From: Escherichia coli
GTDB lineage: Bacteria; Pseudomonadota; Gammaproteobacteria; Enterobacterales; Enterobacteriaceae
Strand: one strand, 5' to 3'
Assembly: GCF_044324875.1 (NCBI RefSeq)
Contig: NZ_CP172185.1
DNA: 64,000 nt
Below the pieces are notes generated by a model. That model was not told where the DNA came from. It saw only the letters and a program-made list of their open reading frames with translations, and ran no database searches. The translations under genes were made by a program, and so were the position numbers. Shown in pieces: positions 9,831 through 29,554 of the stretch; positions within the stretch are counted from its first letter, which is position 1; every line of letters begins with the position of its first letter.

Positions 9831-10177
9831 CCGCTGTTTACAGGGGGATGAACCCGCAGGGAACCGGCACGCTGAGCGACAGCGAACACCTGAAAAACAG
9901 CGTGCGGGATATCCTGACCACACCGCCAGGCAGCCGGGTGATGCGCCGCGAATACGGCAGCCTGTTACCGGACCTCATCGACGAGCCCATGAACGACACC
10001 ACGCGTTTACAGTGCATGAGCGCCACGGTGACTGCGCTGGCGCGCCATGAACCCCGTATAGCACTGCAGAACGTCGATGTGAACTGGCGGGCTGGCGGAC
10101 GCGCCGTGGTGACGTTATCCGGCATCATCACCGAAACCATGCAGAACATCACATTCAGTATCACCCTGAGGGAGTAA
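9827..10177 (+). CDS. W: Baseplate wedge protein (gp25/GPW family), P2 gpW-like
   Basis: Start set at ATG 9827 overlapping V stop (ATGA); MTAVYRGMNPQGTGTLSDSEHLKNSVRDILTTPPGSRVMRREYGS... typical GPW pattern. Confidence 0.8.
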   Translation: MTAVYRGMNPQGTGTLSDSEHLKNSVRDILTTPPGSRVMRREYGSLLPDLIDEPMNDTTRLQCMSATVTALARHEPRIALQNVDVNWRAGGRAVVTLSGIITETMQNITFSITLRE

Positions 10178-10180
10178 ATC

Positions 10181-11077
10181 ATGCCTTCCGTTGACCTGTC
10201 ACAGTTACCGGAACCGGCCATCATCGCGCAGCCGGATTTTGAGTCCATCCTGGCAGACATTAAAACCATGATGGTGAGCTCCTTCCCGGAAGAATACCGC
10301 GCCGCCGTCACCCGTGCCCTTACTCTGGAATCCGAGCCATTGAACATCATTTCCCAGGCCATGGCCTTTCGTGAAATGCTGCTTCGCCAGCGCATCAATG
10401 AAGCCGCCCGCGCCTGCATGCTCAGCCACAGCCGGGGCAGTGACCTGGACAATCTGGCCGCCAACAACAACACCCGCCGCCTGGTCATTCATCCGGCCAC
10501 TGATACCACGGAAGCAGTGATGGAAAGCGACACATCGCTGCGTCTGCGTGCCCAGTCAGCCTGGGACGGCCTGAGTGTGGCCGGACCGTCCGGCGCGTAT
10601 GAGTATTTTGCCCGGAGCGCAAGCGGTCTTGTCCGTGATGCGCGCGCCATCAGCCCGTCACCGGCCACAGTCACCGTCTCCATCCTGTCAGCAGACGGTG
10701 ACGGCACCGCCGGTGAGGCGTTACTGAACACGGTGCGCACCGCCCTGAATGCCGAGAACGTGCGCCCGGTTGCCGACCGCCTGACTGTGCAGAGTGCTAC
10801 CATCGTGAACTGGGTAATGGAAGCGAAGCTGTATTTTTATCCAGGGCCGGAGTCTGAACCCATGCTTGCGGCCGCTGACGCCGCTTTCCGTGCATGGCTG
10901 GCAGACCAGGGCCGTATCGGTCAGGACGTGGCCCTGTCAGCCATCACTGCAGCGCTGCATGTTCACGGTGTCCAGCGCGTTGAGGTCATAAAACCCACGC
11001 AGAACATCACCATCAGTGACACTCAGGCAGCCAGATGTACCACATTCAGCATCAGCGAAGGAGGACGCAATGAGTGA
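10181..11077 (+). CDS. J: Baseplate assembly protein, P2 gpJ-like
   Basis: 298-aa ORF following W; size and position. Confidence 0.8.
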   Translation: MPSVDLSQLPEPAIIAQPDFESILADIKTMMVSSFPEEYRAAVTRALTLESEPLNIISQAMAFREMLLRQRINEAARACMLSHSRGSDLDNLAANNNTRRLVIHPATDTTEAVMESDTSLRLRAQSAWDGLSVAGPSGAYEYFARSASGLVRDARAISPSPATVTVSILSADGDGTAGEALLNTVRTALNAENVRPVADRLTVQSATIVNWVMEAKLYFYPGPESEPMLAAADAAFRAWLADQGRIGQDVALSAITAALHVHGVQRVEVIKPTQNITISDTQAARCTTFSISEGGRNE

Positions 11078-11798
11078 CAGGAAAAAAACAGACAGCGCAC
11101 AGCACAGTACATCACTGCTTCCACCGTCCGCAGGGCCATTCATGCGCGCCACAGAGGCGACAGGAGTACGCATCAGTGCCATACCGGTGGACGCCGACAC
11201 CCTGTGGTCGCCGGACCGCTGCCCTGCTCACCTCCTGCCCTACCTTGCATGGGCATGTTCCGTTGACCGCTGGGACCGCAACTGGCCGGAAGAGACCAGA
11301 CGACAGGTGATTGGCCAGTCCTGGAAGGTACACCGCCAGAAAGGAACGGTCAGCGCACTGAGGGAAACAGCCGCAGCATTCGGTTATGAGATGACCATCA
11401 GTGAATGGTGGGAGCATGGAGGGCAGCCGGGCACCTTTACTGTGACCATCGGGGCAGACACTCAGGGCATCGGCCCTGAAACATGGCTGGAGATGGAGGA
11501 TCTGCTCAATGATGCACGTCCGGTTTCACGTCATATGACGGGGCTTTATGCCGCCCTGCGTTCTGGCGTGACGGTTTACTGCGCTGCGGGAGCAGGCTGT
11601 GATGAGCTTGTAACCATTCACCAGAAAGCTCGCGCCTCCCTGGCGGGCCAGGTGACCATCATCGCAGCAGGAGACACACACACAACCGACAGTGTGACCG
11701 TACTGCCGGGGGTTCCGTCAGGTATGTACGGGGAGATCTGTATCCGTACCGGCGCAGGTATATTCGTGAGTGAGATTGTGGAGGTTATCACCTTATGA
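11070..11798 (+). CDS. I: Tail/baseplate protein, P2 gpI-like
   Basis: Start set at ATG 11070 (MSDRKK...) overlapping J 3' end; directly precedes tail fibre gene. Confidence 0.7.
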   Translation: MSDRKKTDSAQHSTSLLPPSAGPFMRATEATGVRISAIPVDADTLWSPDRCPAHLLPYLAWACSVDRWDRNWPEETRRQVIGQSWKVHRQKGTVSALRETAAAFGYEMTISEWWEHGGQPGTFTVTIGADTQGIGPETWLEMEDLLNDARPVSRHMTGLYAALRSGVTVYCAAGAGCDELVTIHQKARASLAGQVTIIAAGDTHTTDSVTVLPGVPSGMYGEICIRTGAGIFVSEIVEVITL

Positions 11799-12910
11799 AC
11801 ACCGATTTTTATTCCGTTCTGACGGATGCCGGGCTGAAAAAACTGGCGGCAGCCGCAGCATCAGGGAATCAGATGAAAATCACCCATATGGCTGTAGGCG
11901 ACGGAAACGGAAAAGCCGTAACACCCGGCAGGGCCGACACCAGGCTTGTCAGGGAAAAATACCGTGCGCCACTGAACAGTCTGGAAGAAGACACAGAGAG
12001 ACCGGGGCATGTTATCGCAGAAATGGTGATACCTGAAAAACAGGGAGGGTGGTGGATCAGAGAATTCGGATTATTCGACGAAGACGGCGGAATGATTGTT
12101 ACAGGCAAATTTCCTGACACATGGAAGCCTGCACCTGGTCAGGGTGGAGCACGACTGATATCAGTGAAAGTGGTTGTGGCAGTATCACATACAGAAAACA
12201 TTGTGCTGAAAGTGGATCCTTCTGTTGTCATGGCAACCCGGGAATGGGTGAACACAAAAGCAGAGCAGTTAAAGAAAGAGCTCAGACAACCTGATGCAAC
12301 CACCAAAACAAAAGGCATTGTTCAGCTTAGCAGTGACATCAACAGCACCTCTGAAACGCAGGCTGCCACCCCCGGAGCGGTAAAAGCCGTGAATGATCGT
12401 GTGGACGGAAAACAGGACGCGGATCCCACGCTCACATCTCTGTCCGGGAAAAATGCACAGCAACTGAGGCAGCTTCTGGGGCTGGGCACGCTTGCCACCC
12501 TGAACAGGGGCACCGGTTCAGGGAATGTGCCGGACATGAGTCACTTTGCGAGTAAAAAAGCAGACTACGGTTACCAGTGTTTTCCTGGCGGCATAATGAT
12601 CCAGTGGCTGCGGATCCCCTCAGACCACACAGGAAGAGCTGTCAGTCAGGAAGCCCGGGTGGCACTAAGCGGCGTGCGACTGTTTTCAGTGGAGGGTAAC
12701 TGGAACGGTAATAACATGATTAAGACCCTGGCAAACTACCAGTGGCCGAGAGTTTTCGGGGCAATTTATGCGACCGTTGCAACCAGGAATCACGGATCTG
12801 CATGGCGAGTATATCCGGTGTCCGCGAACAAGGATGTGCGTGTCGTATCCATTGCCTGGGCGGGAGAAGGTACAGATGACACTTATGTGGTTGGGGTGGG
12901 AAGAGTATGA
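11795..12910 (+). CDS. H: Tail fibre protein, P2 gpH-like N-terminus with short divergent C-terminal domain
   Basis: N-terminus ...LKKLAAAAASGNQMKITHMAVGDGNG... and internal QLSSDINSTSETQAATPGAVKAVND match the recalled conserved P2 H regions; only 371 aa. Confidence 0.75.
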   Translation: MNTDFYSVLTDAGLKKLAAAAASGNQMKITHMAVGDGNGKAVTPGRADTRLVREKYRAPLNSLEEDTERPGHVIAEMVIPEKQGGWWIREFGLFDEDGGMIVTGKFPDTWKPAPGQGGARLISVKVVVAVSHTENIVLKVDPSVVMATREWVNTKAEQLKKELRQPDATTKTKGIVQLSSDINSTSETQAATPGAVKAVNDRVDGKQDADPTLTSLSGKNAQQLRQLLGLGTLATLNRGTGSGNVPDMSHFASKKADYGYQCFPGGIMIQWLRIPSDHTGRAVSQEARVALSGVRLFSVEGNWNGNNMIKTLANYQWPRVFGAIYATVATRNHGSAWRVYPVSANKDVRVVSIAWAGEGTDDTYVVGVGRV

Positions 12911-13353
12911 AAATGATGTGGTCGCCGTCTGTGGGCGGTTTTTTTGGTGAAGACAGCAGCCATATACCGGAAGATGCGGTGGAGGTTGATGAATCGATGT
13001 GGAGCAGGATGATGGAGGGACAACTTGAGGGAAAAATTATCGTTAACGGCCCTGACGACCTGCCTGTTCTGGAAGAGCGTCCGGGACCGGGGCCAGAAGA
13101 ATACCGGCATCAGGCTCGCCTTGAGCTTGCTGACCTTCGCCGACAGGGGCTGGAACACATAGAGTCGATGCGCTGGCGTGACAAAGCGGTCATGAACAGG
13201 CTGGGAGAAGAGGAGAAGCAGGAGTATAACGCCTGGCTTGACTGGCTCGACGCGCTTGACAGTACGGACATATCAGGGGCACCGGATGTGGTGTGGCCGG
13301 TGATGCCCGTCACGGTGGTTCCTGAACATCCTCAGAAAAAATTGCCGGAGTGA
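12907..13353 (+). CDS. G: Tail fibre assembly chaperone, P2 gpG-like
   Basis: 148-aa ORF overlapping H stop (ATGA); position after tail fibre gene. Confidence 0.65.
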   Translation: MKMMWSPSVGGFFGEDSSHIPEDAVEVDESMWSRMMEGQLEGKIIVNGPDDLPVLEERPGPGPEEYRHQARLELADLRRQGLEHIESMRWRDKAVMNRLGEEEKQEYNAWLDWLDALDSTDISGAPDVVWPVMPVTVVPEHPQKKLPE

Positions 13354-13360
13354 ACAGCCT

Positions 13361-13386
13361 CCGGCCTGAGACTGCACTCAGGCCGG
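13361..13386. terminator. GC-rich hairpin between convergent G and U genes (candidate terminator, weak U-tract)
   Basis: Perfect 10-bp inverted repeat ccggcctgag/ctcaggccgg with 6-nt loop; followed by aaattctgtt on plus strand. Confidence 0.4.
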
Positions 13387-13394
13387 AAATTCTG

Positions 13395-13841
13395 TTATCT
13401 GCCAGCATTGCGGATGATACCCGAAAGCATATCAGACACCGACGGCATCATTCGCTCCCGCAAATCCTCATCACAGCGTTCCATACTGACAGTGAACTCA
13501 ATTTTTTTGGCCTTACCGTGGCGGTCAAGTTCGCTTCGCGTTGTGCGGACAGCCGTTATCACATACATGCCGTATATCTGCCCCACACCGTCAATCAGCG
13601 GCCATGGGCGGCCAGTGTAAGCCTGCGTCGTTAAAAGGCTGAGGGAAACCTCACCGCCGGTAATTTCGGGATAAAGCACACCGGACAACGTGATCTGGTC
13701 GTCACCCGCCCCGATATACTGCCAGCTGGCCGAACGATTGATGCGTTCATTTTTAACGTGGCGCCAGGTTTTATTATGTTGCAGTTGTTGATGAGGCAGC
13801 GTACGCAACTCAAAAACAAACATGCCGTAAATCATCATCAT
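13395..13841 (-). CDS. U: Tail protein, P2 gpU-like
   Basis: 148-aa ORF downstream of tape measure on minus strand. Confidence 0.75.
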   Translation of the reverse strand: MMMIYGMFVFELRTLPHQQLQHNKTWRHVKNERINRSASWQYIGAGDDQITLSGVLYPEITGGEVSLSLLTTQAYTGRPWPLIDGVGQIYGMYVITAVRTTRSELDRHGKAKKIEFTVSMERCDEDLRERMMPSVSDMLSGIIRNAGR

Positions 13842-13852
13842 GCGAGGTACTC

Positions 13853-16800
13853 CTAATCTCTGTCACGGAAACTACCGACTGTCTGGCGGATACGGCGTTC
13901 CATTTCCGCACGGACGGCATCACCCACCATTTTTGCCAGTTCGCGCGGGTTTTGCGTGTGAACATCATGCAGGTGAATATGCAGTTCGCCAGTTAATCCC
14001 CATGGTGCCGGATCACTCTGACGCGGTCGGGGCGATGCGGGGGATATGGGCTGGCGCACAGCCTCAACCACCGGACGGGATGTTGCCGTTACGACGGGTG
14101 TCATTACCGGCGCAATATTGCCGGACACTACCGGTTTAATTACCGGGGAGAGCGTCGGTATAACATCGCCAGCCATAACCGGTTTGATCGCTGGCGAAAT
14201 AACCGGAGCAACAGACTCAGCCATGACGGAACTGACAGGCTGAGGCGCTCTCACTATGCCAGCATCGATAACCAGCATGAGCTCGCGTACTGCCTCAAGG
14301 ACAGGACGGGATATTGCCGCCATCACTGGTGTCATTAGCGGGGAGAACGTCGGCATGACATCGTGAGTCATAACCGGTTTGATCACCGGCGAAACCACCG
14401 GCGTAATATTACCGGACAGTACCGGACGGACGACCGGAGGAATAACCGGCACATTATTCACGGACACCACCGGCTTCACGACCGGCGACACGTTCGCCGT
14501 GGTGGATATCAGCGGCGAAACACTGACAGGCGGTGGCGCTGGCAGCGGTGGCAACGAAGGCACACTGACCGACGGCACCTGCGGCAGTCTGACAGGTGGC
14601 TCACTGACACTACCCGGTAACAGGGAAGCTGCGCGGTTAAAGCGTTCCTCCTTCCACTCACCACGAACGGCCAGCGCTTCCGGCAGGTTTTTAAAGATAA
14701 TATCGCCGGGACCAGTGCGTTTTTTCGCCTGTTTCGCCTCATCCAGCAGGCCACCGGTGTTATCGACGATTTTATTCAGGCGACGCATGGTGCCGGTATT
14801 CTCCCCCGTCAGCGGAGCAGTTGCTGCAGGTGCAGGTACTGGCGGCTTTTTGTCTTTGTCATTTTGCGGCGGATTAATGACATTAACATCCGCCAGGAGC
14901 ATGGCGGCTTTCTCGTTCAGCAGCTCCTTCTGCTTCAGCTCTTCCGCCTTTTTCCGGGCGCGCTCAACCGCCGACGGAATCAGCCCGAGTTTTTCCAGCA
15001 CCCGGGTTAATGAGTCAATCAGCAGCGTAACCGGACCGGTCACCAGATTGCTGATAAACTCCCCGACCTTCTGCCCGAACGTCCGCCCGGCTTCCGTGCA
15101 CTTGTCCAGCTCATCCTTTGTTGTGCTTACCGGCGCGAACAAATCCACGAACCACTGCCACACACGCCCGATTGTCTGCCCGACATACTCAAACAATGGT
15201 CCCAGTGGTGCCACAGCCTCGCGCAGTGGCGTAAGCCCCTGCCACAGGCCGGACAAGAACCCGCCCACGACAGCCTTCAGCTGGTCCCAGTGCCGCCAGA
15301 TAAGCACTGCCGCACCGACCAGTGTCGCCACCACAAGGCCCACCGGACTTAACAGAAAACCCAGCGCCCCGCCAAGTGCGCCCACCGCACCACTCACCAT
15401 CCCCCACAGTGCGGGCAGACCTGACAGTCTGAGCGCCAGTATTCCGATACCGCGCCCCAGTGAAATCAGTGCGCCGCCAGGTGAAGTGAACGCAGCCAGC
15501 AGACCACCACGCAGCGCGCCAAGTCCCGCCTGCACACCACGAAGCCGCCCCGCAACTACGCCCAGCAGTGCAGCAAACCGTCCGGCACCGGAGGTGATAC
15601 CGACAAACAGCACGCGCCAGCCACCGATACCGCCCAGCGGACCACCGAGTACGCCGCGCAGCTGCGTCAGTAACGGCAGCGCACGACCGAGGCCGGATGT
15701 GCCGGTCAGCAGGGCAAACCCAAGACGCAGTTTTGCCAGCGGCCCCATCAACACACCAGTGGCAAGTGACAGCGCCCCCATGGCCGCAACCGCAGCCAGC
15801 AGTGCACCACCGGCAATCAGCAGTTGTTTTGTCAGTTCAGGGTGCGCCTGGGCCAGCGCGGTGACTTTCGCAATAACCCGGGTGAACGACTGCGTGACAG
15901 AACGCAGCGGCCCGTCAACGAGGTCAGCGACACGGATACGCAGCCCTTCCCATGCGCTGTTCAGTGATTTCAGGTCGCCGTCCAGGTTGTCCGCCATGAT
16001 TCTGGCGTTTTCTTCCAGTTCGCCGTTCGCTGCCTGAATCTCACGCGTCAGGCGCGGCAGGTTTTTTTCGCCTGCCTGTTCAACCAGGCTCATCAGGGAG
16101 ACATACGCCTCCTGCCCGGCAATATCTGAAAAGAACGAGACTTTTGCCGCGTTACCGTATTTACGGGTGGCCTGATACAGCTCATACAGGATATCTTCCA
16201 TCGGGCGCATGTTCCCGTAAGCATCCTGCGTTTCCACGCCCAGCTGTTTCAGCGCCTTTGCTGCCGCTTTAGGCGGGTTCACAAGGCGGGACAGACTGGA
16301 GCGCAGCGCCGTACCAGCATCACTGCCACGTATCCCCATCGACCCAAGCAACCCGGTCATGGCTGCGGTCTGTTCAAGAGACAGACCGAGTGAGGCGGCG
16401 ACCGGTCCCGTATATTTCATCGTCTCACCAAGCCCGCGCAGGTCGGTATTGGTGCGGGTGAACGTTGCGGCCAGCGTGTCACCCACGCGGTTCATCTGGT
16501 CGGCAGACAACCCGAACTGCGTAAGGATATTTGAGCTGATATCGGCCGTCTGACCGAGGTCCATGCCGCTGGCCGTTGCCAGATTCAGCACGCCGGGAAG
16601 AGCCGCCTGTATCGCCTGCGGCGTGAACCCCGCCATGGCAAGGAACGCCTGACCGCTGGCAGCATCACCTGCGGTAAACTGCGTTTCGGAGCCGAGTTTA
16701 AGCGCCTGTTCGCGCAGCGCCTTAAACTGCGGACTGTTTTTGTCAATACGGGTCAGCGCCTGGACGCGCGACATCTCCTTACCAAAACTGACCGCCGGTT

Positions 16801-17431
16801 GCAGGAAACGCCCGGCCGCATAGCCACCTGCCGCTGCCGTGCCGACTGCCGTAAATCCACCCGCTTTCAGTTTTCCCGCCATCTCCTGAGCGCGGAAATA
16901 TTGCTGGCGTGCCTGCGTGACGCGTGCCAGAGTCTGCCGTTCACGTTCCAGCTGTTCGTTGTATTGCTGTGTTCGCCGTATGGCCTGTTGAATGGTGTTG
17001 TCACTGCCGGAAAGCGCAATACCGTGACGCCGCAGCTCACCACCCAGTTCGCGCATTCGCTGAACTTCACGCGCACGGACCTCATTGAGACGCTCAAGTT
17101 TGAGGCTCAAATCGTTCATCAGCTTTTTCTGTTTGTCAGACAGCACGGTTCCGGCGCGCTGAATTTGCTGAAGTGCGCTTAACTGGCGTTGTGCCCGGGC
17201 AATGCCGTTTCCGGCCTTGTTTGCAGCCTCGCGGGCGCGATCAAATGAACGGGCGTGGCGTTCCAGGTTTTTGATCGCACCCTGCGTTCTCTGTATGGAG
17301 TCGCCAAGCTGGCCCATCATGCGACGGGCGTTTTCGGTGGGACGGGTCAGCCTGTCAACAGCGCTGAAGGCGACCCGTATATCAAGCGTTTTCATGCTCT
17401 GCGTTCCCGCTGCGAAGGGCCGCCCGCTCAC
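13853..17431 (-). CDS. T: Tail tape measure protein, P2 gpT-like (1192 aa)
   Basis: Very long ORF; coiled-coil N-terminal part, Gly/Ala-rich hydrophobic central segment, Pro/Val-rich repetitive C-terminus; follows E/E' as in P2. Track start is GTG 17431 with SD GAGGTGG; alternative ATG at 17395. Confidence 0.85.
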   Translation of the reverse strand: MSGRPFAAGTQSMKTLDIRVAFSAVDRLTRPTENARRMMGQLGDSIQRTQGAIKNLERHARSFDRAREAANKAGNGIARAQRQLSALQQIQRAGTVLSDKQKKLMNDLSLKLERLNEVRAREVQRMRELGGELRRHGIALSGSDNTIQQAIRRTQQYNEQLERERQTLARVTQARQQYFRAQEMAGKLKAGGFTAVGTAAAGGYAAGRFLQPAVSFGKEMSRVQALTRIDKNSPQFKALREQALKLGSETQFTAGDAASGQAFLAMAGFTPQAIQAALPGVLNLATASGMDLGQTADISSNILTQFGLSADQMNRVGDTLAATFTRTNTDLRGLGETMKYTGPVAASLGLSLEQTAAMTGLLGSMGIRGSDAGTALRSSLSRLVNPPKAAAKALKQLGVETQDAYGNMRPMEDILYELYQATRKYGNAAKVSFFSDIAGQEAYVSLMSLVEQAGEKNLPRLTREIQAANGELEENARIMADNLDGDLKSLNSAWEGLRIRVADLVDGPLRSVTQSFTRVIAKVTALAQAHPELTKQLLIAGGALLAAVAAMGALSLATGVLMGPLAKLRLGFALLTGTSGLGRALPLLTQLRGVLGGPLGGIGGWRVLFVGITSGAGRFAALLGVVAGRLRGVQAGLGALRGGLLAAFTSPGGALISLGRGIGILALRLSGLPALWGMVSGAVGALGGALGFLLSPVGLVVATLVGAAVLIWRHWDQLKAVVGGFLSGLWQGLTPLREAVAPLGPLFEYVGQTIGRVWQWFVDLFAPVSTTKDELDKCTEAGRTFGQKVGEFISNLVTGPVTLLIDSLTRVLEKLGLIPSAVERARKKAEELKQKELLNEKAAMLLADVNVINPPQNDKDKKPPVPAPAATAPLTGENTGTMRRLNKIVDNTGGLLDEAKQAKKRTGPGDIIFKNLPEALAVRGEWKEERFNRAASLLPGSVSEPPVRLPQVPSVSVPSLPPLPAPPPVSVSPLISTTANVSPVVKPVVSVNNVPVIPPVVRPVLSGNITPVVSPVIKPVMTHDVMPTFSPLMTPVMAAISRPVLEAVRELMLVIDAGIVRAPQPVSSVMAESVAPVISPAIKPVMAGDVIPTLSPVIKPVVSGNIAPVMTPVVTATSRPVVEAVRQPISPASPRPRQSDPAPWGLTGELHIHLHDVHTQNPRELAKMVGDAVRAEMERRIRQTVGSFRDRD
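14060..14500. repeat. Imperfect tandem duplication (~230-bp unit) inside the 3' part of the tape measure gene
   Basis: gcctcaaccaccggacgggatgttgccg...gtgtcattaccgg (14061-) vs gcctcaaggacaggacgggatattgccg...gtgtcattagcgg (14292-); encodes repeated ...PVIKPVM..DV.PT.SP...SRPV.EAVR... units. Confidence 0.6.
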
Positions 17432-17908
17432 GCCAGGCGACCACCTCGCCGGGATCCATCAGGAAGATTTCAGCGGGAGACCAGTTGAAAATAACGGCGA
17501 TATCCGCCACAAAGTCTTCAATATGCTCAAAGGGCACGACGGTTATCAGCCTGCCGTCGCCGCCACGCTCTTCCCGCCAGAGTCCTGACCGGCCAAAAAA
17601 TTAACCGCCACCCCGCACAGCTGAATAAAATCAGCGGACCCCATGCGCTTAAGCAGAACCTCGTCCAGTCGCGGCGAAGTGACGCGCGGGAGTAACTCAA
17701 ACATCGCGTCCGTTTTCATGTTCAGCACGTCAAGCAGTGACAGCCCGCGCAGTGAACCGGCCTGCTGTACAGCAGGCGTGATTTCCACATACGTGATTTT
17801 TTTGTTACCGAGCACAAGGGGCGTTTTCAGCGTCACGCCGCGCTCACTGGTCACGTCCGCCGCATCAGCACCGTCAGTAACAGGGGCAACAACCGGATTT
17901 TCTTTCAT
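17382..17908 (-). CDS. E+E' fusion product from programmed -1 ribosomal frameshift (predicted ~175 aa)
   Basis: After slipping on T TTT TTG the -1 frame stays open for 70 codons (GRSGLWREERGGDGRLITVVPFEHIEDFVADIAVIFNWSPAEIFLMDPGEVVAWRERAALRSGNAEHENA) to TGA at 17382-17384, overlapping the start of T; triplet-by-triplet manual translation. Confidence 0.6.
17546..17908 (-). CDS. E: Tail assembly chaperone, P2 gpE-like (zero-frame product)
   Basis: 120-aa ORF ending ...VNFLAGQDSGGKSVAATAG; the NFL codons are AAT TTT TTG (slippery site). Confidence 0.75.
   Translation of the reverse strand: MKENPVVAPVTDGADAADVTSERGVTLKTPLVLGNKKITYVEITPAVQQAGSLRGLSLLDVLNMKTDAMFELLPRVTSPRLDEVLLKRMGSADFIQLCGVAVNFLAGQDSGGKSVAATAG
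17594..17602 (-). other. Slippery heptanucleotide T TTT TTG (codons AAT TTT TTG) for the E/E' -1 frameshift
   Basis: Plus strand ccaaaaaatt at 17593-17602; reverse complement AATTTTTTGG in the E reading frame. Confidence 0.65.
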
Positions 17909-17958
17909 GCATAAAACCTCAAATCAGGGGGCGACGCCGCGCGCCGCCGTGGAAAACA

Positions 17959-18477
17959 TTAACCACCAAGACCAATCGCCGAGCGCACGCGGTCCGGGAA
18001 GACGCTTTTGCCGTCCTTGCGTTCGATGTGGTTCAGTAAATCAATCTCCAGCACCGGACGGTCGTTAATGCTGAGTTTGTAGTAGGTACTTTTGACCGCA
18101 TAGGTGTGAGACGTGACCTCACCCTGTTTGGCCTCCCCGGTATCAATTTCCGTCACGCGACCGCGAAGCTCAATCTCGTACAGGTCACTCTGTTCTTCAT
18201 CGTTGTAGTACTCACCGACAAAGCGCAGCAGCGTACCGTCAATCGTTCCGCCGTACTTGAGGAACAGTTCGCGGGTCGGCCCGCCCATGGTGAAACTCGC
18301 ATCCAGCGCGCCGTCATCCAGGCCAAGGTCGATATTTACTGCACCGGCCATACCACCACCGCGATAGGCTTCCGTTTTACGGGTCAGTTTGGGGGGCGTG
18401 AAGCCGGTCACCCTGCCAATCTGGTTCACCCCGTCAGTAAACAGCGTGAACACCCTGAGATTTTTTGGTACGGCCAT
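17959..18477 (-). CDS. FII: Tail tube protein, P2 gpFII-like
   Basis: 172-aa ORF downstream of sheath gene; size and context. Confidence 0.85.
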   Translation of the reverse strand: MAVPKNLRVFTLFTDGVNQIGRVTGFTPPKLTRKTEAYRGGGMAGAVNIDLGLDDGALDASFTMGGPTRELFLKYGGTIDGTLLRFVGEYYNDEEQSDLYEIELRGRVTEIDTGEAKQGEVTSHTYAVKSTYYKLSINDRPVLEIDLLNHIERKDGKSVFPDRVRSAIGLGG

Positions 18478-18779
18478 TAAGCACCTCCAAGCGTCGCAAA
18501 TGCAGGACCAAAGAATTCATCAGTAAACGTCTGGTAAAGTTCCATATCCTCAAGCGGCGGAACGGGCGTGTACTTGTAGCGGATACGCACGCGTCCCTGA
18601 CGAAGTTCCGTGGTGCTGTTATCCACCACGTCATACCAGCACTCCGCACCAACGAGACGTCCTGACGTAACCAGCGCATCCAGTTTTGCGCGAATTGCGC
18701 TTAACACGTCTTTCACATTAGCAGGGGTCAGCGGGGCATCAATCGTTTCAAACTGCGCTTCCGCAACAGAATCAGCCAG

Positions 18780-18786
18780 CACCTGA
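18780..18786. repeat. Target-site duplication CACCTGA (left copy) of the IS21-family element
   Basis: Identical 7-mer at 21426-21432; reconstructed FI reading frame needs exactly one copy. Confidence 0.7.
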
Positions 18787-18988
18787 TGCAAAATGGCATC
18801 TGAATCGATCGCAGTTTGGCATTCGAATCGATCATGATTTGGCATCCATCTCCGATCACAGTTTGGCATCACAATCGATCACGATTTGGCATGCTTCCGA
18901 TCATTGATTGGCATCCTGCCAGTCACTCCGGGAATTAACTCTTTTCACCACAGTCTCCATTGCCGTGTTTAAACCAGTGGAGACGTCA

Positions 18989-20554
18989 ATGTCCAGAAAG
19001 AGAAAATCCAGGAGCACTATGGAAACCTGTTTTAAGATCCTTCAGCTCAAGTTCGACAAGAAGCTGACTAACCGTTGTATCGGACTGACGTTACACATCA
19101 GCGCCTCAACCGTTTTTGAGGTTCTTGCCCGCTTCAAAGCCTCTTCTCTGTCATGGCCATTACCTGCTGATATATCCCATGACACGCTGGAGAAACTCAT
19201 TTTTCCGCCCAAAGACACCTTTGCATCAGAGCTTGTAATGCCTGACATGTTGTACTTCGATACGGAAATGAGAAAACCAGGTGTGACGCGGCAACTGTTG
19301 TGGATGGAATACAAGGCACAGGCGGGTAACAAAGCGATGGGATACTCGCACTTCTGCCGTTGCTACCGGGAGTGGAAAAAAACGCGACGTCTCTCCATGC
19401 GCCAGGAGCATCGTGCCGGCGAAAAGCTTTTTATCGACTTCTGTGGTCCTACGGTTCCTGTTATTAATCCGGACACCGGTGAGATACGCCGCGTGGCAAT
19501 CTTCGTGGCCGTAATGGGGGCGTCCAACTATACCTACGTTGAAGCGTGCGAAGGTCAGGACATGATGTCATGGTTAAATGCCCACAGCCGTTGCCTGACC
19601 TTCCTGGGCGGCGTACCGAAGCTGCTCATCCCCGATAACCTCAGAAGCGCAGTGAAAAAGGCCGATCGATATGAGCCTGTCATCAACGACAGTTATCAGG
19701 CACTGGCTGAGCACTATGGCACGGTTATCATCCCGGCCCGACCACGCAAACCTAAAGATAAACCAAAAGCAGAAAACGGCGTCCTCATCGTTGAACGATG
19801 GCTTCTTGCCCGCATCCGTAATGAAACCTTCCACACGCTCAGGGCGCTGAATGCGCGCCTTAGGGAGTTACTGACAGACATGAATAACCGGCCAATGAAG
19901 GGGTACGGCAATCAAACCCGTGCAGAACGCTTCCGCATACTGGATGCGCCAGCACTCTCTCCGCTGCCTCTGGCACCTTATGAATACACGGAATACAAAG
20001 CTGTGAAGGTTGGCCCTGACTACCACGTTGAATATGCCCGTCACTGGTACTCCGTTCCACACGAACTGGTCGGTCAGCGTCTGTCACTGAAGGCGGGGCA
20101 GTCGGTGGTACAGCTCTGGCACAAGGGGCAGTGTGTGGCGCAACATCCGCGCAGCACACATGAATATAAACACACAACCAATCCGCTTCACATGCCAGAG
20201 CGCCACCGGCAGCACGGGACATGGACACCGGAACGCCTGATCGAGCAGGGAAAACGTACGGGCCCGTCCACAGGCCGGGTGGTTGAATCCATGCTGAAGG
20301 CAAAACCCCATCCGGAACTGGCTTATCGTGCAGTTCTGGGGCTGCTGGCACTTCAGAAAAAATACGGCCCGGAACGGCTGGAAAAGGCCTGTTACGTTGC
20401 CCTGCACTATAACGCCCCTGACAGACGCTTTATCGACAATCTGCTGCGTCACCATCGGGAGAACCTGGAGCTTCCATTATCCCGCCAGGGCGAACAACAT
20501 CCGGCATATGCTTCAGAGCATGAAAACCTGCGTGGTCCGGGCTACTACCACTGA
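18989..20554 (+). CDS. istA: IS21-family transposase IstA
   Basis: Start set at ATG 18989 after GGAG (track begins at a TTG at 18908); N-terminal HTH-like segment, ~520 aa; immediately followed by istB. Confidence 0.8.
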   Translation: MSRKRKSRSTMETCFKILQLKFDKKLTNRCIGLTLHISASTVFEVLARFKASSLSWPLPADISHDTLEKLIFPPKDTFASELVMPDMLYFDTEMRKPGVTRQLLWMEYKAQAGNKAMGYSHFCRCYREWKKTRRLSMRQEHRAGEKLFIDFCGPTVPVINPDTGEIRRVAIFVAVMGASNYTYVEACEGQDMMSWLNAHSRCLTFLGGVPKLLIPDNLRSAVKKADRYEPVINDSYQALAEHYGTVIIPARPRKPKDKPKAENGVLIVERWLLARIRNETFHTLRALNARLRELLTDMNNRPMKGYGNQTRAERFRILDAPALSPLPLAPYEYTEYKAVKVGPDYHVEYARHWYSVPHELVGQRLSLKAGQSVVQLWHKGQCVAQHPRSTHEYKHTTNPLHMPERHRQHGTWTPERLIEQGKRTGPSTGRVVESMLKAKPHPELAYRAVLGLLALQKKYGPERLEKACYVALHYNAPDRRFIDNLLRHHRENLELPLSRQGEQHPAYASEHENLRGPGYYH

Positions 20555-20570
20555 CAGAAGGAACAACAGT

Positions 20571-21326
20571 ATGAGTGATAACCTGTTAAACAAACTGACC
20601 CAACTGAAACTCCCGGCGATGGCCGGGAGCCTGATACGGCAGCGGGAAACGCCTCAGACCTACGACGAACTGTCGTTCGAGGAAAGGCTGACGCTGCTGG
20701 TTGATGACGAGCTTCTGAGCAGGGAAAACAGCCGTGTGGCACGGTTGAGAAAAAATGCCGGCCTGAAATACCAGGCAACACCGGAAGGGCTGCGCTATCC
20801 GGCCTCAAGAGGTCTGCGGGCTGAACAGATGAGAGAACTGCTGAACGGCCACTACATAACCCACAGGAAAAACCTGCTGATAACCGGTCCGACAGGATGT
20901 GGCAAGAGCTGGATAGCCAATGCGCTGGGCGAACAGGCATGTCGACAGAAACACAGCGTCCGGTACTGTAGAACCGGGCGATTACTGGAACAACTGGCTC
21001 AGGGACGTGTTGATGGCAGCTGGCTGAAATATCTGAAACAGTTGCAAAAAATACAGGTTCTAATCCTGGACGATCTGGGGCTGGAACAGTTAAGTAACGC
21101 CCAGTGTAATGACCTTCTGGAGCTCATAGAGGATCGTTACGGACAAAGCAGCACGATAGTGGTAAGCCAGTTCCCGGTAGATAAATGGCATGGTCTGATG
21201 GAGAACCCAACAACAGCAGATGCCATCCTGGACAGACTGGTACATAACTCACACCGAGTGGTCCTTCAGGGAGAGTCACTGAGGAAAAATCCCCCGGTAG
21301 TGGAAAGCAGCGAAAAAACGCGTTAA
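20571..21326 (+). CDS. istB: IS21-family ATP-binding helper protein IstB
   Basis: Start set at ATG 20571 after AAGGAA; Walker A GPTGCGKS and Walker B ILDDLG motifs, 251 aa. Confidence 0.85.
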   Translation: MSDNLLNKLTQLKLPAMAGSLIRQRETPQTYDELSFEERLTLLVDDELLSRENSRVARLRKNAGLKYQATPEGLRYPASRGLRAEQMRELLNGHYITHRKNLLITGPTGCGKSWIANALGEQACRQKHSVRYCRTGRLLEQLAQGRVDGSWLKYLKQLQKIQVLILDDLGLEQLSNAQCNDLLELIEDRYGQSSTIVVSQFPVDKWHGLMENPTTADAILDRLVHNSHRVVLQGESLRKNPPVVESSEKTR

Positions 21327-21425
21327 AAAGCGGTAGAAAAAGTTAAGTTCCCGGTTGATCGAATGGATGCGAATCGCTGATCGGACTTCGATGCCAATCC
21401 GTGATCGAATAGAGCGGAATACGCA

Positions 21426-21432
21426 CACCTGA
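21426..21432. repeat. Target-site duplication CACCTGA (right copy) of the IS21-family element
   Basis: See left copy at 18780-18786. Confidence 0.7.
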
Positions 21433-22482
21433 GCGGTTCGCGTGTACACCTCAAAGATATACGCCTTCGTTTCCGGCGTACGGTTGCCCCAGAAGCGGAA
21501 ACCGTTACGGCGAATGATGGTGGTGATTTCCTTGTTGTTGAGATTGTTGGCATCGCTGTCTTCGGACTGAAGGGACCAGAACACCGGGCTGGAAATACCC
21601 AGCACATTTCTTACCGGCACGTTGGACAGCGATTTATGCCAGCCCTGTTCGTGGTCAATACGTGCACGTAAACCGCAGGCGTACGCCGCAGCCGGGAAGA
21701 CCTCATTAGCGCCGGATTTCGGGTTATGGGCGATGAAGTCAGGCCAGAGCAGCATAAGTTCGCGCTCGTTAAATCTGGCGCGGTAGCTGATTGCATCAGC
21801 GGGCTTCTTGCAGTTGTGACAGCCCGCGTAGACAAATGCGCGAAGTTTTTCTGCAATTACACACAGGGATTTTGTGACAGCTTCAGTATCCAGTCCGGGC
21901 GCTGCGATGATGCGCGGACGGTAACCGATGGCATCATCCTGTTCAGCTATCAGAAGTGCATACATACCGGTATAATTACCGTCGCCATCCGTGCCACCAA
22001 TGACATACTGGTCCTGCGTTTTGTGTGGGTATACAGGATGTGCATCTTCAGACTCATCAATACCAAAAAATGCCCTGTCTTCAGGATCCAGATGACCGAA
22101 TGATGTAACTCCTGTATCCGGGGCGCCCTGAGAACTGGCATCAGGAACGCGCACCACAATCACCTTCGTGCTCACCTGGTCGGCGACAGCCTTAAGCGAT
22201 TTGTAAAGCGTCCCCTTTGTGCCGGCCTTACCCAGCACATCACTGACGCGGGTCAGCAGTGTGGGTTTGTTCAGCGGGAACAGAGTTTCATCCGCGTCAT
22301 CTGCCGTAGCCACAATACCAATAACACTGGAATCCACATCATTAATGGCGGTGGCAAGGCCGGTACTTTCCCTTACGCGCGCACCATGAAAGCGTGTTTC
22401 ACTCATATGTTTCACCCTTGTCTGGCTGGTTGATTTTGCGTAATCATTACCCACGATGCCGCCGGTATCATCTCCTGCCCGT

Positions 22483-22500
22483 TCTCACCGTTCGCTTACA
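22483..22500. promoter_or_regulatory. TCT-N12-ACA box (one mismatch to TGT-N12-ACA) in divergent FI/D intergenic region
   Basis: Shares the 16-mer TTCGCTTACAACAAAC with the P/O intergenic box; centred ~85 bp from FI start and ~76 bp from D start. Confidence 0.4.
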
Positions 22501-22566
22501 ACAAACAGCCGTTCACCACGGTCGCACGCCGTGAAAACATGACGGGACACACCACGAGGGCAGACC

Positions 22567-23658
22567 ATGACCGACCTGTTAATCAACGTTCCGTCACCGG
22601 ATATCGAAATCACCATCAACAACAACAGACTCCGTAACGTCACGGAGCGGCTCATGACGCTGTCACTGACCGACAACCGGGGCTTTGAGGCGGACCGCGT
22701 CACCCTGACCATTGACGACGCGGACGGGCAGCTTCAGCTGCCACAGCGCGGCGCACGCCTGAACGTGATGATTGGCTGGCGCGGGGAGGCGCTGGTTAAC
22801 AAGGGTGTCTACATCGTTGATGAAGTGACGTGGGAAGGCCCGCCGGACAAACTGACCATCACCGCCAGCAGCGCCGATTTTCGCGAAGAGTTCAACGTGA
22901 AGCGTGAAGTCTCCTGGCACGACGTGACGGTAAAACAGGTTGTGTCAGCCATCGCGCACCGCTACGGCCTGAAAGCACAGATAAGCGATATCCTCATGGA
23001 TATCGAAATTGACCACGCAGACCAGACCGAAGAGAGCGATATATCCTTCCTGACCCGCATGGCTGAAATGCTGGGTGCGATTGCCACCGTAAAAAACGGC
23101 AGCCTGTTATTCATTCTGCCGGGTGGCGGAACCGGGCCGGACGGAAAAGCCCTGCCTTCGTTCGCCATTACCCGCAGCAGCGGCGACAGTCACCGCTTTC
23201 GCATTGCTGACCGTGATGCGTATACGGGGGTCCGGGCGCACTGGCTCGATCTGAAGTTCGGGCAAAAGAAAAAAGTGAACGTGAAGCGACGCAGGGAAGC
23301 CGGGAAACAGAAACAGGAGAAGAGCAGCAGCCGGGAAGGTGATTACATGGAGGGCGCGGAAGGGAACGTCTACGTTCTGCGCAGGACTTACCAGAATGAA
23401 GAAACCGCACGACGTGCAGCAGCTGCAAAGTGGCAGGAACTACAGCGGGGCGCGGCATCATTCTCCATCACGCTGGCGCGCGGTCGTGCCGACCTGTACC
23501 CTGAAATGCACGGCAGGGTAACAGGTTTTAAAAGCGAGGTGGACAATCAGGACTGGATTATTGCCAGGGTGGAGCACAGCATAGATGAAAGCGGCTTCAC
23601 CACACAACTGGAGCTGGAAGCGAAAATCCCCGAATGGATAGCAGATTCAGGCGGATAA
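22567..23658 (+). CDS. D: Tail protein, P2 gpD-like
   Basis: 363-aa ORF; size and position before ogr; leader CACGAGGGC shared with O gene leader. Confidence 0.8.
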   Translation: MTDLLINVPSPDIEITINNNRLRNVTERLMTLSLTDNRGFEADRVTLTIDDADGQLQLPQRGARLNVMIGWRGEALVNKGVYIVDEVTWEGPPDKLTITASSADFREEFNVKREVSWHDVTVKQVVSAIAHRYGLKAQISDILMDIEIDHADQTEESDISFLTRMAEMLGAIATVKNGSLLFILPGGGTGPDGKALPSFAITRSSGDSHRFRIADRDAYTGVRAHWLDLKFGQKKKVNVKRRREAGKQKQEKSSSREGDYMEGAEGNVYVLRRTYQNEETARRAAAAKWQELQRGAASFSITLARGRADLYPEMHGRVTGFKSEVDNQDWIIARVEHSIDESGFTTQLELEAKIPEWIADSGG

Positions 23659-23701
23659 AATTAAAATGAGCCATCTCCACTCAGCCAGATAAGGAGAAGC
23701 C

Positions 23702-23953
23702 ATGTTCCGTTGTCCCCTGTGCGGTGCATCCGCACGTATCCGCACCAGTCGCAATGAAAATGATTCAGGCACAGTTCGCCTGAAGTACTACCAGTGCAAT
23801 AACCTCGAATGCGGGATCGGCTTTACCACACTGGAGGGTTTTAACAAATTCACATCAAAACGCGCCCCGTCGCCGCAGGGTACAGAGCGGATACCGTGGG
23901 AAGATTTTCCGGGATCTCACAGGGGGAATGCTCAGATGAATCTTGATATTTAA
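23702..23953 (+). CDS. ogr: Ogr/Delta-type zinc-finger late transcription activator
   Basis: MFRCPLCGASARIRTSR...YYQCNNLECG: CxxC...CxxxxC arrangement and N-terminal similarity to recalled P2 Ogr. Confidence 0.8.
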   Translation: MFRCPLCGASARIRTSRNENDSGTVRLKYYQCNNLECGIGFTTLEGFNKFTSKRAPSPQGTERIPWEDFPGSHRGNAQMNLDI

Positions 23954-24002
23954 GAACAATAATCAGGTTGAGAGGACATCATAAGGCAAGTAGATTAACG
24001 GC

Positions 24003-24097
24003 AGATACTTTCCCGCAACCACGGGCAAGTATTTAATTATCCATGATGAAATATGACCTAAATTGTTTTTTGCCCGCCGGAAAGCGGGCATTTTTTT
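24003..24097 (+). ncRNA. Candidate small RNA cassette 1 (promoter TTGAGA-17-TAGATT at 23968-23996; hairpin + U7 terminator 24072-24097)
   Basis: Exact 17-bp spacer; stem GCCCGC/GCGGGC then TTTTTTT; no convincing RBS or ORF; also serves as terminator after ogr. Confidence 0.35.
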
Positions 24098-24311
24098 ATT
24101 CTTTTGTGGTTATGGGGTCATCAGGAACCACGTGCAGATTATATTTTTGTTTTTTTGGCGTTCCTCCGGCAGCAACGAGTTCATCAATAAGACACTGACA
24201 CGCCTGAACATCCCGGGCATGTCTTAGTTTCACCTTTATTGATTTAACCTTATCCTCACCGGAGGAGAAATGCAGTTCAATCTCAATATCGTTTCTTCGG
24301 AACAATCTCAT
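24096..24311 (-). CDS. Hypothetical 71-aa protein (no family recognised)
   Basis: ATG preceded by AGGGGG; MRLFRRNDIEIELHFSSGEDKVKSIKVKLRHARDVQACQCLIDELVAAGGTPKKQKYNLHVVPDDPITTKE; AT-rich upstream region with TATAAT-like elements. Confidence 0.4.
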   Translation of the reverse strand: MRLFRRNDIEIELHFSSGEDKVKSIKVKLRHARDVQACQCLIDELVAAGGTPKKQKYNLHVVPDDPITTKE

Positions 24312-24483
24312 ACGCCCCCCTGAATATATCAGAAATGCTAGTATCGAAAAATGAGAAAACAGTTAGACAGGAGAAACATATTAACACAAATCATTTATAC
24401 CTATAGATGAAATTATAATTTCATTCATGAATATGATAGATAACTATATTGTGAACAAAATGAAAAATGGCTAAATTAAAAAT

Positions 24484-24564
24484 GGGCATGGAGGAATGCC
24501 TCGTAATCAGTAATACATGATCCATACTTCCTTGTTTTGCCCGCCGGAAAGCGGGCATTTTTTT
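24484..24564 (+). ncRNA. Candidate small RNA cassette 1b (promoter TTGTGA-17-TAAATT at 24449-24477; terminator 24539-24564)
   Basis: Same terminator sequence as cassette 1; body shares ATACATGATCCATAC-like segment with the other cassettes. Confidence 0.3.
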
Positions 24565-24668
24565 GGCGGTTACCATCGCCTCACCTTCCTGGTTCACACA
24601 AAGCAACCCTGATTTTCCATGAAAACTTCAGGGTTGAGCCAAAAGCACAAAGACAGTAGATTAACCAA

Positions 24669-24767
24669 GGGTACCCGCCACCTGCCAACAGGAACGGTAT
24701 CCAGTACGTATTAATGACTGACAATTCACATTGCTGTTTTGCCCGCCAGAAGGTGGGCATTTTTTTG
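24669..24767 (+). ncRNA. Candidate small RNA cassette 2 (promoter TTGAGC-17-TAGATT at 24634-24662; terminator 24741-24767)
   Basis: Terminator stem GCCCGCC/GGTGGGC carries substitutions relative to cassettes 1 and 1b that keep pairing; 5' body ACCAAGGGTACCCGCCACCTGCCAACAGGAA. Confidence 0.4.
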
Positions 24768-24871
24768 GCAGTTATCATGGACGCACCTTCATGACACATA
24801 TTAAGCAGACCTGATTTTTCCATGAAAAATTCATGGTTGAGACAAAAGCACAAAAACAGTAGATTAACCAC

Positions 24872-24969
24872 GGGTGCCTGCCACCTGACAACAGGAAGGG
24901 GTGTCCATTATCCATGATATACAAACGAAAAGTCTTGTCTTTTGCCCGCCGTTGCGCGGGCTTTTTTTT
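24872..24969 (+). ncRNA. Candidate small RNA cassette 3 (promoter TTGAGA-17-TAGATT at 24837-24865; terminator 24944-24969)
   Basis: Terminator stem GCCCGC/GCGGGC with different loop (CGTTGC); 5' body ACCACGGGTGCCTGCCACCTGACAACAGGAA ~85% identical to cassette 2. Confidence 0.4.
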
Positions 24970-25366
24970 ATCCAAGAACCCTGTCTGCAGCAACACGCGC
25001 CAGAAATCCAGAGCGGCTACCGTATTCAGGATGAGACTCAACGAACTGATCAATGCGACGAATAAGCAGAGATGGCAGGGTAACATTGATTTTTTCCGAT
25101 TTCCCCATCAGGCGGGACACATCCACCTCAACGAGCGCCCACACTGCATCACTGTATTCAGGATCTGATTGCCATTCATCAAGATTTGTAGCGACAGGGA
25201 TAGACTCACCAGATTCAACCAGTAATTCTACGTGTGCCTCAATGGCTTCACGGGCACTGTCTACCGCATCCTGAAAACTATCACCGCCAGAAAAACAGCC
25301 GGGCAGATCTGGGACGCGAACACCAAAAGATGAATCCCCCCGGTCAATAGCGATTGCATATAACAT
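24968..25366 (-). CDS. hicB: HicB-family antitoxin (N-terminal HicB fold plus C-terminal ribbon-helix-helix)
   Basis: 132-aa ORF MLYAIAIDRGDSSFGVRVPDLPGCFSGGDSFQDAVDSAREAIEAHVELLVESGESIP...KINVTLPSLLIRRIDQFV; GGAGG 5 nt before ATG; 22 nt downstream of hicA. Confidence 0.7.
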   Translation of the reverse strand: MLYAIAIDRGDSSFGVRVPDLPGCFSGGDSFQDAVDSAREAIEAHVELLVESGESIPVATNLDEWQSDPEYSDAVWALVEVDVSRLMGKSEKINVTLPSLLIRRIDQFVESHPEYGSRSGFLARVAADRVLG

Positions 25367-25617: not shown

Positions 25618-25767
25618 TAGTCAAAGCAAGGGTTCGGAGTTATTAGAGTTATAGAATAATTGACTGCCTCCCCAAAACTGCGGCAAGAAAAAACCACTGA
25701 CCACGGTCAATTTGTGGATCATGAATTAATTTTTATTTATAAATCAATGCATTATACAAAGAAAAAA

Positions 25768-25787
25768 GGCCGCAGAGCGGCCTTTTT
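25768..25787 (-). terminator. Intrinsic terminator downstream of ihfA (bidirectional hairpin)
   Basis: ggccgcagagcggcc stem-loop flanked by A-run upstream and T-run downstream. Confidence 0.6.
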
Positions 25788-25799
25788 AGTTAGATCAGA

Positions 25800-26099
25800 T
25801 TACTCGTCTTTGGGCGAAGCGTTTTCGACCCGGCTTTTTAACTTCTGCCCGGGTCTGAAGGTCACCACGCGCCGTGCTGTAATGGGAATATCCTCGCCCG
25901 TTTTCGGGTTACGTCCCGGGCGTTGATTCTTATCACGCAGATCGAAGTTACCAAAACCAGAGAGTTTCACCTGTTCGCCGTTTTCCAGAGCGCGACGGAT
26001 CTCTTCGAAAAACAGTTCAACCAGTTCTTTGGCATCCCGCTTGCTAAGCCCAAGCTTATCAAACAGATATTCTGACATTTCAGCTTTTGTAAGCGCCAT
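25800..26099 (-). CDS. ihfA: Integration host factor alpha subunit
   Basis: 99-aa translation [92 protein letters not shown]... recognised as E. coli IHF-alpha. Confidence 0.95.
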
Positions 26100-29531: not shown

Positions 29532-29554
29532 TTAATTTTTTCAAAACGCGCATA

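Follow-up and report, generated by a model that had tools for sequence, protein, structure and literature searches.

The 64,000-nucleotide stretch of Escherichia coli DNA analysed here (the window) carries part of a P2-family (Peduoviridae) prophage that belongs to the P88-like branch and is integrated adjoining hicB-ihfA-pheT on the chromosome. Its set of Peduoviridae contractile-tail late genes is complete (FI, FII, E, T, U and D; PHROG E values 1e-31 to 1e-186). The tail-fibre assembly gene G (12907-13353, plus strand; phrog_188, E 3.7e-33) is the final gene of the rightward O-to-G late unit and is followed on the minus strand by U, a tail protein (13395-13841; phrog_76, E 1.5e-67); the tape measure T (13853-17431; phrog_28, E 4.8e-186; open frame of 1192 aa); the tail assembly chaperone E (17546-17908; phrog_103, E 4e-31); the tail tube FII (17959-18477; phrog_55, E 1e-54); and the sheath FI (phrog_23), which lies in two pieces (18477-18786 and 21426-22406). 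The plus strand resumes with D, late control D or tail protein (22567-23658; phrog_52, E 2.3e-152), and an ogr-like gene for an Ogr/Delta-type zinc-finger late activator (23702-23953; phrog_603). The identities and strands given in the initial annotation are confirmed; it placed FI-FII-E/E'-T-U on the minus strand, convergent with G and divergent from D.

A twin prophage, 99.7% identical and located at another E. coli chromosomal site (the copA site), has the same gene order; its counterpart of the ogr-like gene is annotated 'Ogr/Delta-like zinc finger protein', and its T start in the RefSeq annotation equals position 17395 of the window. T contains an internal 195-nt duplication within its Pro/Val-rich C-terminal part. 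As in P2, E and E' are predicted to be expressed through a -1 frameshift at TTTTTTG: the heptamer (17600-17594, minus strand) has the X XXY YYZ phasing, the -1 frame that encodes the E' extension (17382-17600, minus strand) stays open to 17382, overlapping the T start, and at the corresponding location the twin has a 'GpE family' CDS. For the tandem terminator-bearing units 3' of ogr, an Rfam scan returned no family above threshold.

The hairpin reported between the convergent genes G and U is real (13360-13387; 11-bp stem, dG -27.7 kcal/mol, z -5.2), and none of 200 shuffled sequences folded as well. A second hairpin on the minus strand (13365-13344) overlaps the first and is followed by the T run AATTTTTT, so that 13344-13387 is a candidate bidirectional terminator region for both strands. 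Only 41 bp separate the G stop from the U stop, and the junction therefore holds no Z/fun-type gene, in agreement with the absence of that slot first proposed. Relatives carry variable cargo at the G/U junction: an invertase and an alternative fibre in P88, and a DUF262 protein in Klebsiella phage ST16-OXA48phi5.4.

An IS21-family element in the sheath gene

The initial annotation treated FI as intact and missed an ISSso4-like insertion sequence of the IS21 family that splits it (18787-21425, plus strand; 2,639 bp, with boundaries taken from the IS-free twin). The element encodes the IstA transposase (open frame 18908-20554, plus strand; likely ATG at 18989; NF033546, 284 bits against a cut-off of 160) followed by the IstB helper ATPase (20571-21326, plus strand; NF038214, 257 bits against a cut-off of 200); it has TG...CA ends (TGCAAAATGGCAT... 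and ...GGAATACGCA), repeated TGGCAT-type motifs and, according to TRF, 23-nt terminal repeats. Defined against the empty site, the 7-bp direct target duplication CACCTGA is present at 18780-18786 and 21426-21432. The 3' fragment of FI (18477-18786, minus strand; about codons 325-427; phrog_23) ends at one copy of the duplication, and the 5' fragment (21426-22406, minus strand; about codons 1-327, with the ATG at 22406; phrog_23, E 8e-84) includes the other. Removal of the element and one copy of the duplication in silico restores a 427-aa FI frame that differs from the sheath of the twin at 5 residues.

In its istA and istB genes, TG/CA ends and 7-bp duplication, the element resembles other ISSso4-like IS21 elements of E. 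coli and differs only in its insertion site; full-length copies that are 100% identical occur in other E. coli chromosomes and plasmids. It is absent from FI in all five near-identical prophages examined in complete E. coli genomes (four at the same ihfA-side site and the twin at the copA site), and no complete RefSeq E. coli genome carries it in this sheath gene. Its insertion after about codon 325 is recent and peculiar to the copy in the window. Because the sheath gene is split, the prophage is probably tail-defective: a truncated sheath, with a probable polar effect on FII through U, would leave it unable to build contractile tails.

The FI/D spacer as a probable divergent late control region

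The 160-bp spacer between FI and D (22407-22566) contains the box GTTCTCACCGTTCGCTTACAACAAAC at 22481-22506. The late-promoter-type box that had been pointed out halfway from the start of FI (22406) to that of D (22567) is borne out as TCTCACCGTTCGCTTACA at 22483-22500. A second box, GTTGTCGGCATTCGCTTACAACAAAC (3118-3143, plus strand), occupies the P/O spacer; from its centre, P starts about 74 bp away and O about 80 bp away. The P/O box is an exact TGT-N12-ACA match (3120-3137) and the FI/D box, TCT-N12-ACA, has one mismatch; the two share the exact 16-mer TTCGCTTACAACAAAC, which was found nowhere else in the 64 kb even when 3 mismatches were allowed. A bare TGT-N12-ACA is not evidence by itself, because the window contains fewer instances (9) than expected by chance (15); the only other one in the prophage, at 8305, is inside an ORF. 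Given the -10-like hexamers AATGAT (minus strand, 22449-22444) and AAACAT (plus strand, 22535-22540), the centre of the FI/D box falls near -55 of both predicted starts, so that one T(G/C)T-N12-ACAACAAA box would lie some 55 bp from each. Across 69 distinct FI/D spacers the box T[GC]T-N12-ACAACAAA is kept, and the P/O spacers of both the window and P88 have the same box type and spacing. In box type, spacing and the shared 16-mer, the FI/D spacer indeed mirrors the divergent P/O unit, as had been suggested.

The P2 record (NC_001895) provides a precedent, in that a single activator site (3057-3087) serves both pP and pO, whose transcription starts are 111 bp apart. The window has the same gene set as the P2 F operon (FI FII E E' T U D), with D likewise followed by an Ogr-type activator gene, and it has predicted counterparts of the TGT-N12-ACA-type box about 55 bp upstream of late starts and of the divergent promoter pair sharing one activator site. 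In P2, however, the six genes form one co-directional operon transcribed from pF, with Z/fun between G and FI, whereas in the window FI through U are inverted and D is a separate rightward unit; D itself is 50% identical to that of P2. No separate pV-type box was recognisable inside the O-to-G unit of the window. By analogy with P2, and from the conservation of the box, the model in which one Ogr-type box in the middle of the FI/D spacer drives two divergent late promoters is the most likely one, although the TCT of this box, in place of TGT, counts against it. The leftward transcript would run from FI through U and end at the hairpin region that is common to convergent G, the rightward transcript would cover D, and two bidirectional control regions, P/O and FI/D, would organise the late genes.

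Distribution and origin of the inverted order

P88 (Peduoviridae, Xuanwuvirus; NC_026014) and the related phages 500465-2, P884B11 and Citrobacter phiSM have the gene order of the window: Q,P / O...H,G / U,T,E',E,FII,FI on the opposite strand / D, ogr. Their FI/D spacers (about 157-160 bp) contain the same box type at the same spacing. The proteins of the window are 78% (D), 85% (U) and 74% (N-terminal part of FI) identical to those of P88; the differences are that the G/U junction of the window has no invertase and alternative-fibre cassette, H is shorter, T is longer (1192 versus 935 aa) and the sheath gene is split by the insertion sequence. Membership of Xuanwuvirus requires at least 70% nucleotide identity over genome length to type members; for the part of the prophage that the window holds, megablast gives about 77% identity over just 11% of a 12-kb query, and blastn on the junction gives about 72%. 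Similarity of about 72-77% over less than half of the region does not establish that the prophage belongs to the genus of P88; its lineage is probably sister to Xuanwuvirus.

The inversion relative to P2 stands, since P2 FI-FII-E-T-U-D are co-directional and FI-U of the window oppose D; the implication that it marks a notable rearrangement of this prophage does not, the order being common in relatives and inherited. It was found in four ICTV genera, Xuanwuvirus (P88), Reginaelenavirus (Klebsiella phage 3LV2017), Reipivirus (ST16-OXA48phi5.4) and Senquatrovirus (Salmonella phage SEN4), of which the last three have FI-U opposite D and the conserved spacer box, as the window does, and are more distant, with other hosts and other G/U cargo. 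All 80 IMG/VR viral contigs retrieved through the D protein, a sample made up of the best matches to it (68-100% identical), have it as well; those that cluster with the two Klebsiella phages have D proteins 68-70% identical to that of the window. At least 651 of 5,426 complete E. coli genomes (about one in eight) contain the inverted order, and the inverted junction occurs in phages of Escherichia, Citrobacter, Enterobacter, Serratia and Klebsiella. Because related phages commonly share this orientation, the inverted order is a lineage trait. The window shows the arrangement typical of the P88-like clade, with FI-U opposite D and divergent from it across a spacer (about 160-220 bp in the clade) bearing one conserved box. 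It does not have the canonical P2 order, with FI through U co-directional with G and D, which is found in P2, 186 and phiCTX and defines genomes of that type rather than the whole family.

In neighbour-joining trees of D and FI rooted on phiCTX (computed without bootstrap, with three genomes on the canonical side), all 85 inverted loci form one clade that is sister to P2 plus 186; SEN4 is its deepest branch, and both proteins of the window fall within it. A single old inversion is the parsimonious explanation of all the inverted genomes and is not proven by these trees, because they have no bootstrap values and only three canonical genomes and because the loci were best D matches. That the layout is functional rather than accidental, as initially supposed, is supported by its presence in P88 and phiSM, which are viable phages, inducible or spontaneously active (PMC5285337, PMC6456863). 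We hold with high confidence the joint reading of a P88-like prophage with an ancestral block inversion, a shared FI/D box and a recent insertion in FI. In this reading, the ancestor of the P88-like branch would have fixed one ancient inversion, broken at G|FI and U|D, which left the five-gene block FI-FII-E/E'-T-U opposite D throughout the branch.

The presence of an insertion sequence inside the block, and the different order of the textbook reference P2, might instead suggest a recent inversion specific to this genome, for example an IS-mediated one, or an assembly artefact. Either is very improbable, given that IS-free near-identical prophages in five complete genomes, the 80 viral contigs and the four ICTV genera share the order; independent assemblies showing it exclude an artefact. 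IS-mediated inversion was rejected, as the element is a simple insertion with a 7-bp direct duplication, present as a single copy inside FI, and the block borders have no IS. Scarcely any probability attaches, likewise, to a programmed switch in which a Gin/Cin-type invertase flips the FI-U block. P88-like phages do carry a DNA invertase exactly at the G/U junction, and reversible inversions are reported in P88-like prophages, but these concern tail-fibre segments (bioRxiv 10.1101/2022.05.07.487787). A Gin/Cin/Hin-type invertible segment was rejected because the junction in the window has no invertase gene, the block borders share no inverted repeats (longest match 9 nt, versus 10 in shuffled sequences) and 85 of 85 clade members have a single orientation.

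How the spacer acquired its present form is a separate matter. The asymmetric ACAACAAA half of the box faces O and D in the window, in P88 and across the clade. The flank of the P2 pF box resembles the O-facing side of pP/pO, so that a plain flip of a P2-type pF would put that side by FI, not by D; the spacer has therefore probably been remodelled since the inversion. One possible, though doubtful, account accepts the lineage trait and holds that FI/D derives from the P/O region of the same phage, by copying or gene conversion, rather than from a flipped pF, so that D would receive a pO-type promoter and FI a pP-type promoter. The exact 16-mer and the polarity of the boxes agree with it, as does the full-length alignment of the FI/D spacer with the P/O spacer, which scores 107 in the same polarity and 71 in reverse (shuffled sequences 64 +/- 7). 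Against it, P2 late promoters also resemble each other, and because all bind the same activator, similarity between spacers can reflect shared function; moreover, the 12-bp cores of the two boxes of P88 differ substantially. Similarly tentative is the broader proposal that the inversion was accompanied by a second bidirectional Ogr-dependent hub at FI/D, modelled on or copied from P/O, FI and D taking the roles of P and O, respectively.

Consequences for Peduoviridae prophages

Literature searches (Xuanwuvirus, P88, Peduoviridae, P2-like phages) found no explicit description of the FI-U inversion, on whose orientation the P88 paper is silent, nor of a two-hub arrangement in the P88-like clade. 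The inverted order is nonetheless an ordinary observation, already represented in public records, and has little import beyond correct annotation. 'Canonical P2 order' is just one of two widespread Peduoviridae layouts, and scans referenced to P2 will report a rearrangement wherever a P88-like prophage is present, as it is in about one in eight complete E. coli genomes. For the prophage of the window, the probable tail defect affects predictions of inducibility or phage production. For the family, the P88-like clade is a naturally occurring setting in which to examine how a single activator box may serve two divergent late promoters; if the two-hub proposal were true, all late genes would run from two symmetric divergent hubs, as against the three promoter sites of P2.

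Gene order of the late region and its distribution

In the window, the leftmost 25 kb hold the late region of an Escherichia coli prophage of the P2 family; from 24968 host genes follow (hicB, ihfA, pheT, pheS and thrS), with an ihfA-pheT flank matched in 5,425 of 5,426 complete E. coli genomes. Strong PHROG matches identify all of the phage genes: Q and P on the minus strand; O through H and G on the plus strand, up to 13353; U (13395-13841), the tape-measure gene T (13853-17431), E (17546-17908), the tail-tube gene FII (17959-18477) and the tail-sheath gene FI (ATG at 22406) on the minus strand; and D (22567-23658, ATG at 22567) and an ogr-like gene (23702-23953) on the plus strand. In the P2 record, by contrast, FI, FII, E, E', T, U and D form a single co-directional operon transcribed from pF, which confirms the inversion of the FI-U block relative to P2 proposed in the initial annotation. 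As in P2, there is a TTTTTTG signal for an E/E' frameshift, with a -1 frame that stays open as far as 17382 and overlaps the start of T. The tape-measure protein is 1192 aa long, versus 935 aa in P88 and 815 aa in P2, with an internal 195-nt duplication in its Pro/Val-rich C-terminal region (repeat at 14130-14245 and 14325-14440); RefSeq labels the identical gene of the near-identical prophage in E. coli 24A16CRGN010 'incomplete', though its frame is open. Rfam matches in the host part include two expected elements, the STnc540 sRNA overlapping the ihfA 3' region (25703-25858) and the Phe leader upstream of pheS (29554-29678). An ALIL pseudoknot there (47590-47706; 116 bits), a frameshift element of IS3-family transposases, marks another insertion sequence.

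Phage P88 (Xuanwuvirus) has exactly this gene order, as do Klebsiella phages 3LV2017 (Reginaelenavirus) and ST16-OXA48phi5.4 (Reipivirus) and Salmonella phage SEN4 (Senquatrovirus), and a DNA search matched the FI/D junction in phages of Escherichia, Citrobacter, Enterobacter, Serratia and Klebsiella. On 80 viral contigs fetched by D protein (68-100% identity), with genes placed by tblastn, FI and the other block genes, wherever they lie on the stretch examined, are always on the strand opposite to D; in at least 651 of the 5,426 complete E. coli genomes, 80% or more of the divergent junction is matched at one place. P2, 186 and phiCTX differ in having a co-directional block. With phiCTX as root, neighbour-joining trees of the D and FI proteins, built without bootstrap and with the canonical-order side thinly sampled, unite the 85 inverted loci in one clade, sister to P2 plus 186. 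The order, initially implied to be a notable rearrangement, is a lineage trait common among related phages, the outcome that the initial annotation itself had named as refuting a rearrangement; it is most economically read as a single old inversion with breakpoints G|FI and U|D. The layout is a working one, since both P88 and phiSM are viable (PMC5285337, PMC6456863), as the initial annotation had supposed in calling it functional rather than accidental.

Other origins of the order were considered. Independent assemblies with the same order exclude both a recent inversion and an assembly artefact at the block. IS-mediated inversion is excluded, the sole insertion sequence there being a simple insertion inside the block, and so is a programmed invertible segment: the block borders have no inverted repeats, there is no invertase at the window junction, and all clade members show one orientation. 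No comment on the inversion was found in the literature searched.

The convergent G and U genes are separated, as first noted, by a hairpin (13360-13387; 11-bp stem, dG -27.7 kcal/mol, z -5.2), overlapped by a minus-strand hairpin (13365-13344) followed by a T run; the pair is plausibly a two-way terminator. In the clade the G/U junction serves as a slot for variable cargo (window 13354-13394; relative loci L001 25388-27599 and L085 10013-12978), holding an invertase and alternative tail-fibre genes in P88, a DUF262 protein in ST16-OXA48phi5.4 and almost nothing in 3LV2017, SEN4 and the window.

Proposed divergent late control at FI/D

The FI/D spacer holds GTTCTCACCGTTCGCTTACAACAAAC at 22481-22506 and the P/O spacer GTTGTCGGCATTCGCTTACAACAAAC at 3118-3143; their common 16-mer occurs at these two places only in 64 kb, even at three mismatches. 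Motif count is no evidence for the box, since bare TGT-N12-ACA shows no enrichment in the window (9 found versus 15 expected); the evidence is position, extended identity and conservation. From the centre of the FI/D box, near 22491.5, it is 85 bp to the start codon of FI and 75 bp to that of D; the P/O box lies 74 bp from P and 80 bp from O, and P88 has the same geometry. A comparison of 69 distinct FI/D spacers from the clade shows T[GC]T-N12-ACAACAAA and the flanking -10-like elements kept while the remainder varies. These observations uphold the late-promoter-type box initially annotated between FI and D. In P2 a single activator site (3057-3087) is annotated for both pP and pO, with transcription starts at 3016 and 3127 that place its centre about 55 bp from each; the -10-like hexamers read off the FI/D spacer (AATGAT, minus strand, 22449-22444; AAACAT, plus strand, 22535-22540) are positioned as a box at -55 would require. 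We infer that one predicted Ogr-bound box activates two divergent promoters here; the leftward unit would comprise FI-FII-E/E'-T-U, ending at the G/U hairpins, and the rightward unit D.

The box is asymmetric: throughout the clade, P88 and the window included, its ACAACAAA half faces D in FI/D and O in P/O. Aligned over their full length, the two spacers match in the same polarity with a score of 107 (reverse, 71; shuffles, 64 +/- 7). With the same box type and spacing, FI/D mirrors the P/O unit, as initially proposed. The flank of the P2 pF box resembles the O-facing side of pP/pO, and a simple inversion carrying pF would therefore place that side beside FI; the box polarity does not fit a plain flip of the block. 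The FI/D region might instead be a copy of the P/O region or have been reshaped on its model, as the shared polarity and the same-polarity alignment suggest, but function in common could also account for the resemblance, and we hold this origin to be possible but rather doubtful.

Sheath-gene insertion and prophage right end

FI, initially treated as intact, is split by an insertion sequence that had been overlooked. The window and the near-identical prophage at the copA locus of E. coli 24A16CRGN010 (99.7% identical) align without gaps in two segments, 1-18786 and 21426-24969, with an overlap of 7 bp. Between these segments lie 2,639 bp (18787-21425) that encode IS21-family IstA and IstB, both over NCBIfam cut-offs. 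The element has TG...CA ends with repeated terminal motifs, is flanked by a 7-bp target duplication (CACCTGA) and matches ISSso4-like copies elsewhere in E. coli at 100% identity. With the element and one copy of the duplication taken out, the sheath frame is restored at 427 aa and differs from that of the copA-site prophage at five residues. In four complete genomes this prophage occupies the same ihfA-side site but lacks the element, and the insertion was seen in no complete E. coli genome and in none of the near-identical prophages whose FI region was examined; it is therefore recent and specific to this strain. Sheath production should be abolished by it and FII-U expression is probably reduced, probably leaving the prophage tail-defective.

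The stretch from ogr to the prophage right end (23960-24971) contains four units, every one of which closes with the same strong terminator hairpin, GCCCGCC...GCGGGC followed by a T run (24063-24099, 24530-24566, 24732-24768 and 24935-24971). Three have, some 100 nt upstream, a promoter-like TTGAGN-17-TAGATT site, and positions 24533-24950 are covered by a tandem repeat of 203 bp. The units match no Rfam family, are present only in the closest relatives (L002, the copA-site prophage, and loci L004 and L005), and could represent either small-RNA genes in tandem or scars of attachment sites. The same prophage occupies two E. coli sites, hicB-ihfA (window 24968-25366) and copA (L002 26524); homology stops at the last terminator unit, so the attachment core may lie within that hairpin.

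The inverted arrangement is already in many deposited, classified and publicly annotated phage genomes. Only two points are worth recording: the proposed two-hub late-promoter layout and the IS-disrupted sheath gene.
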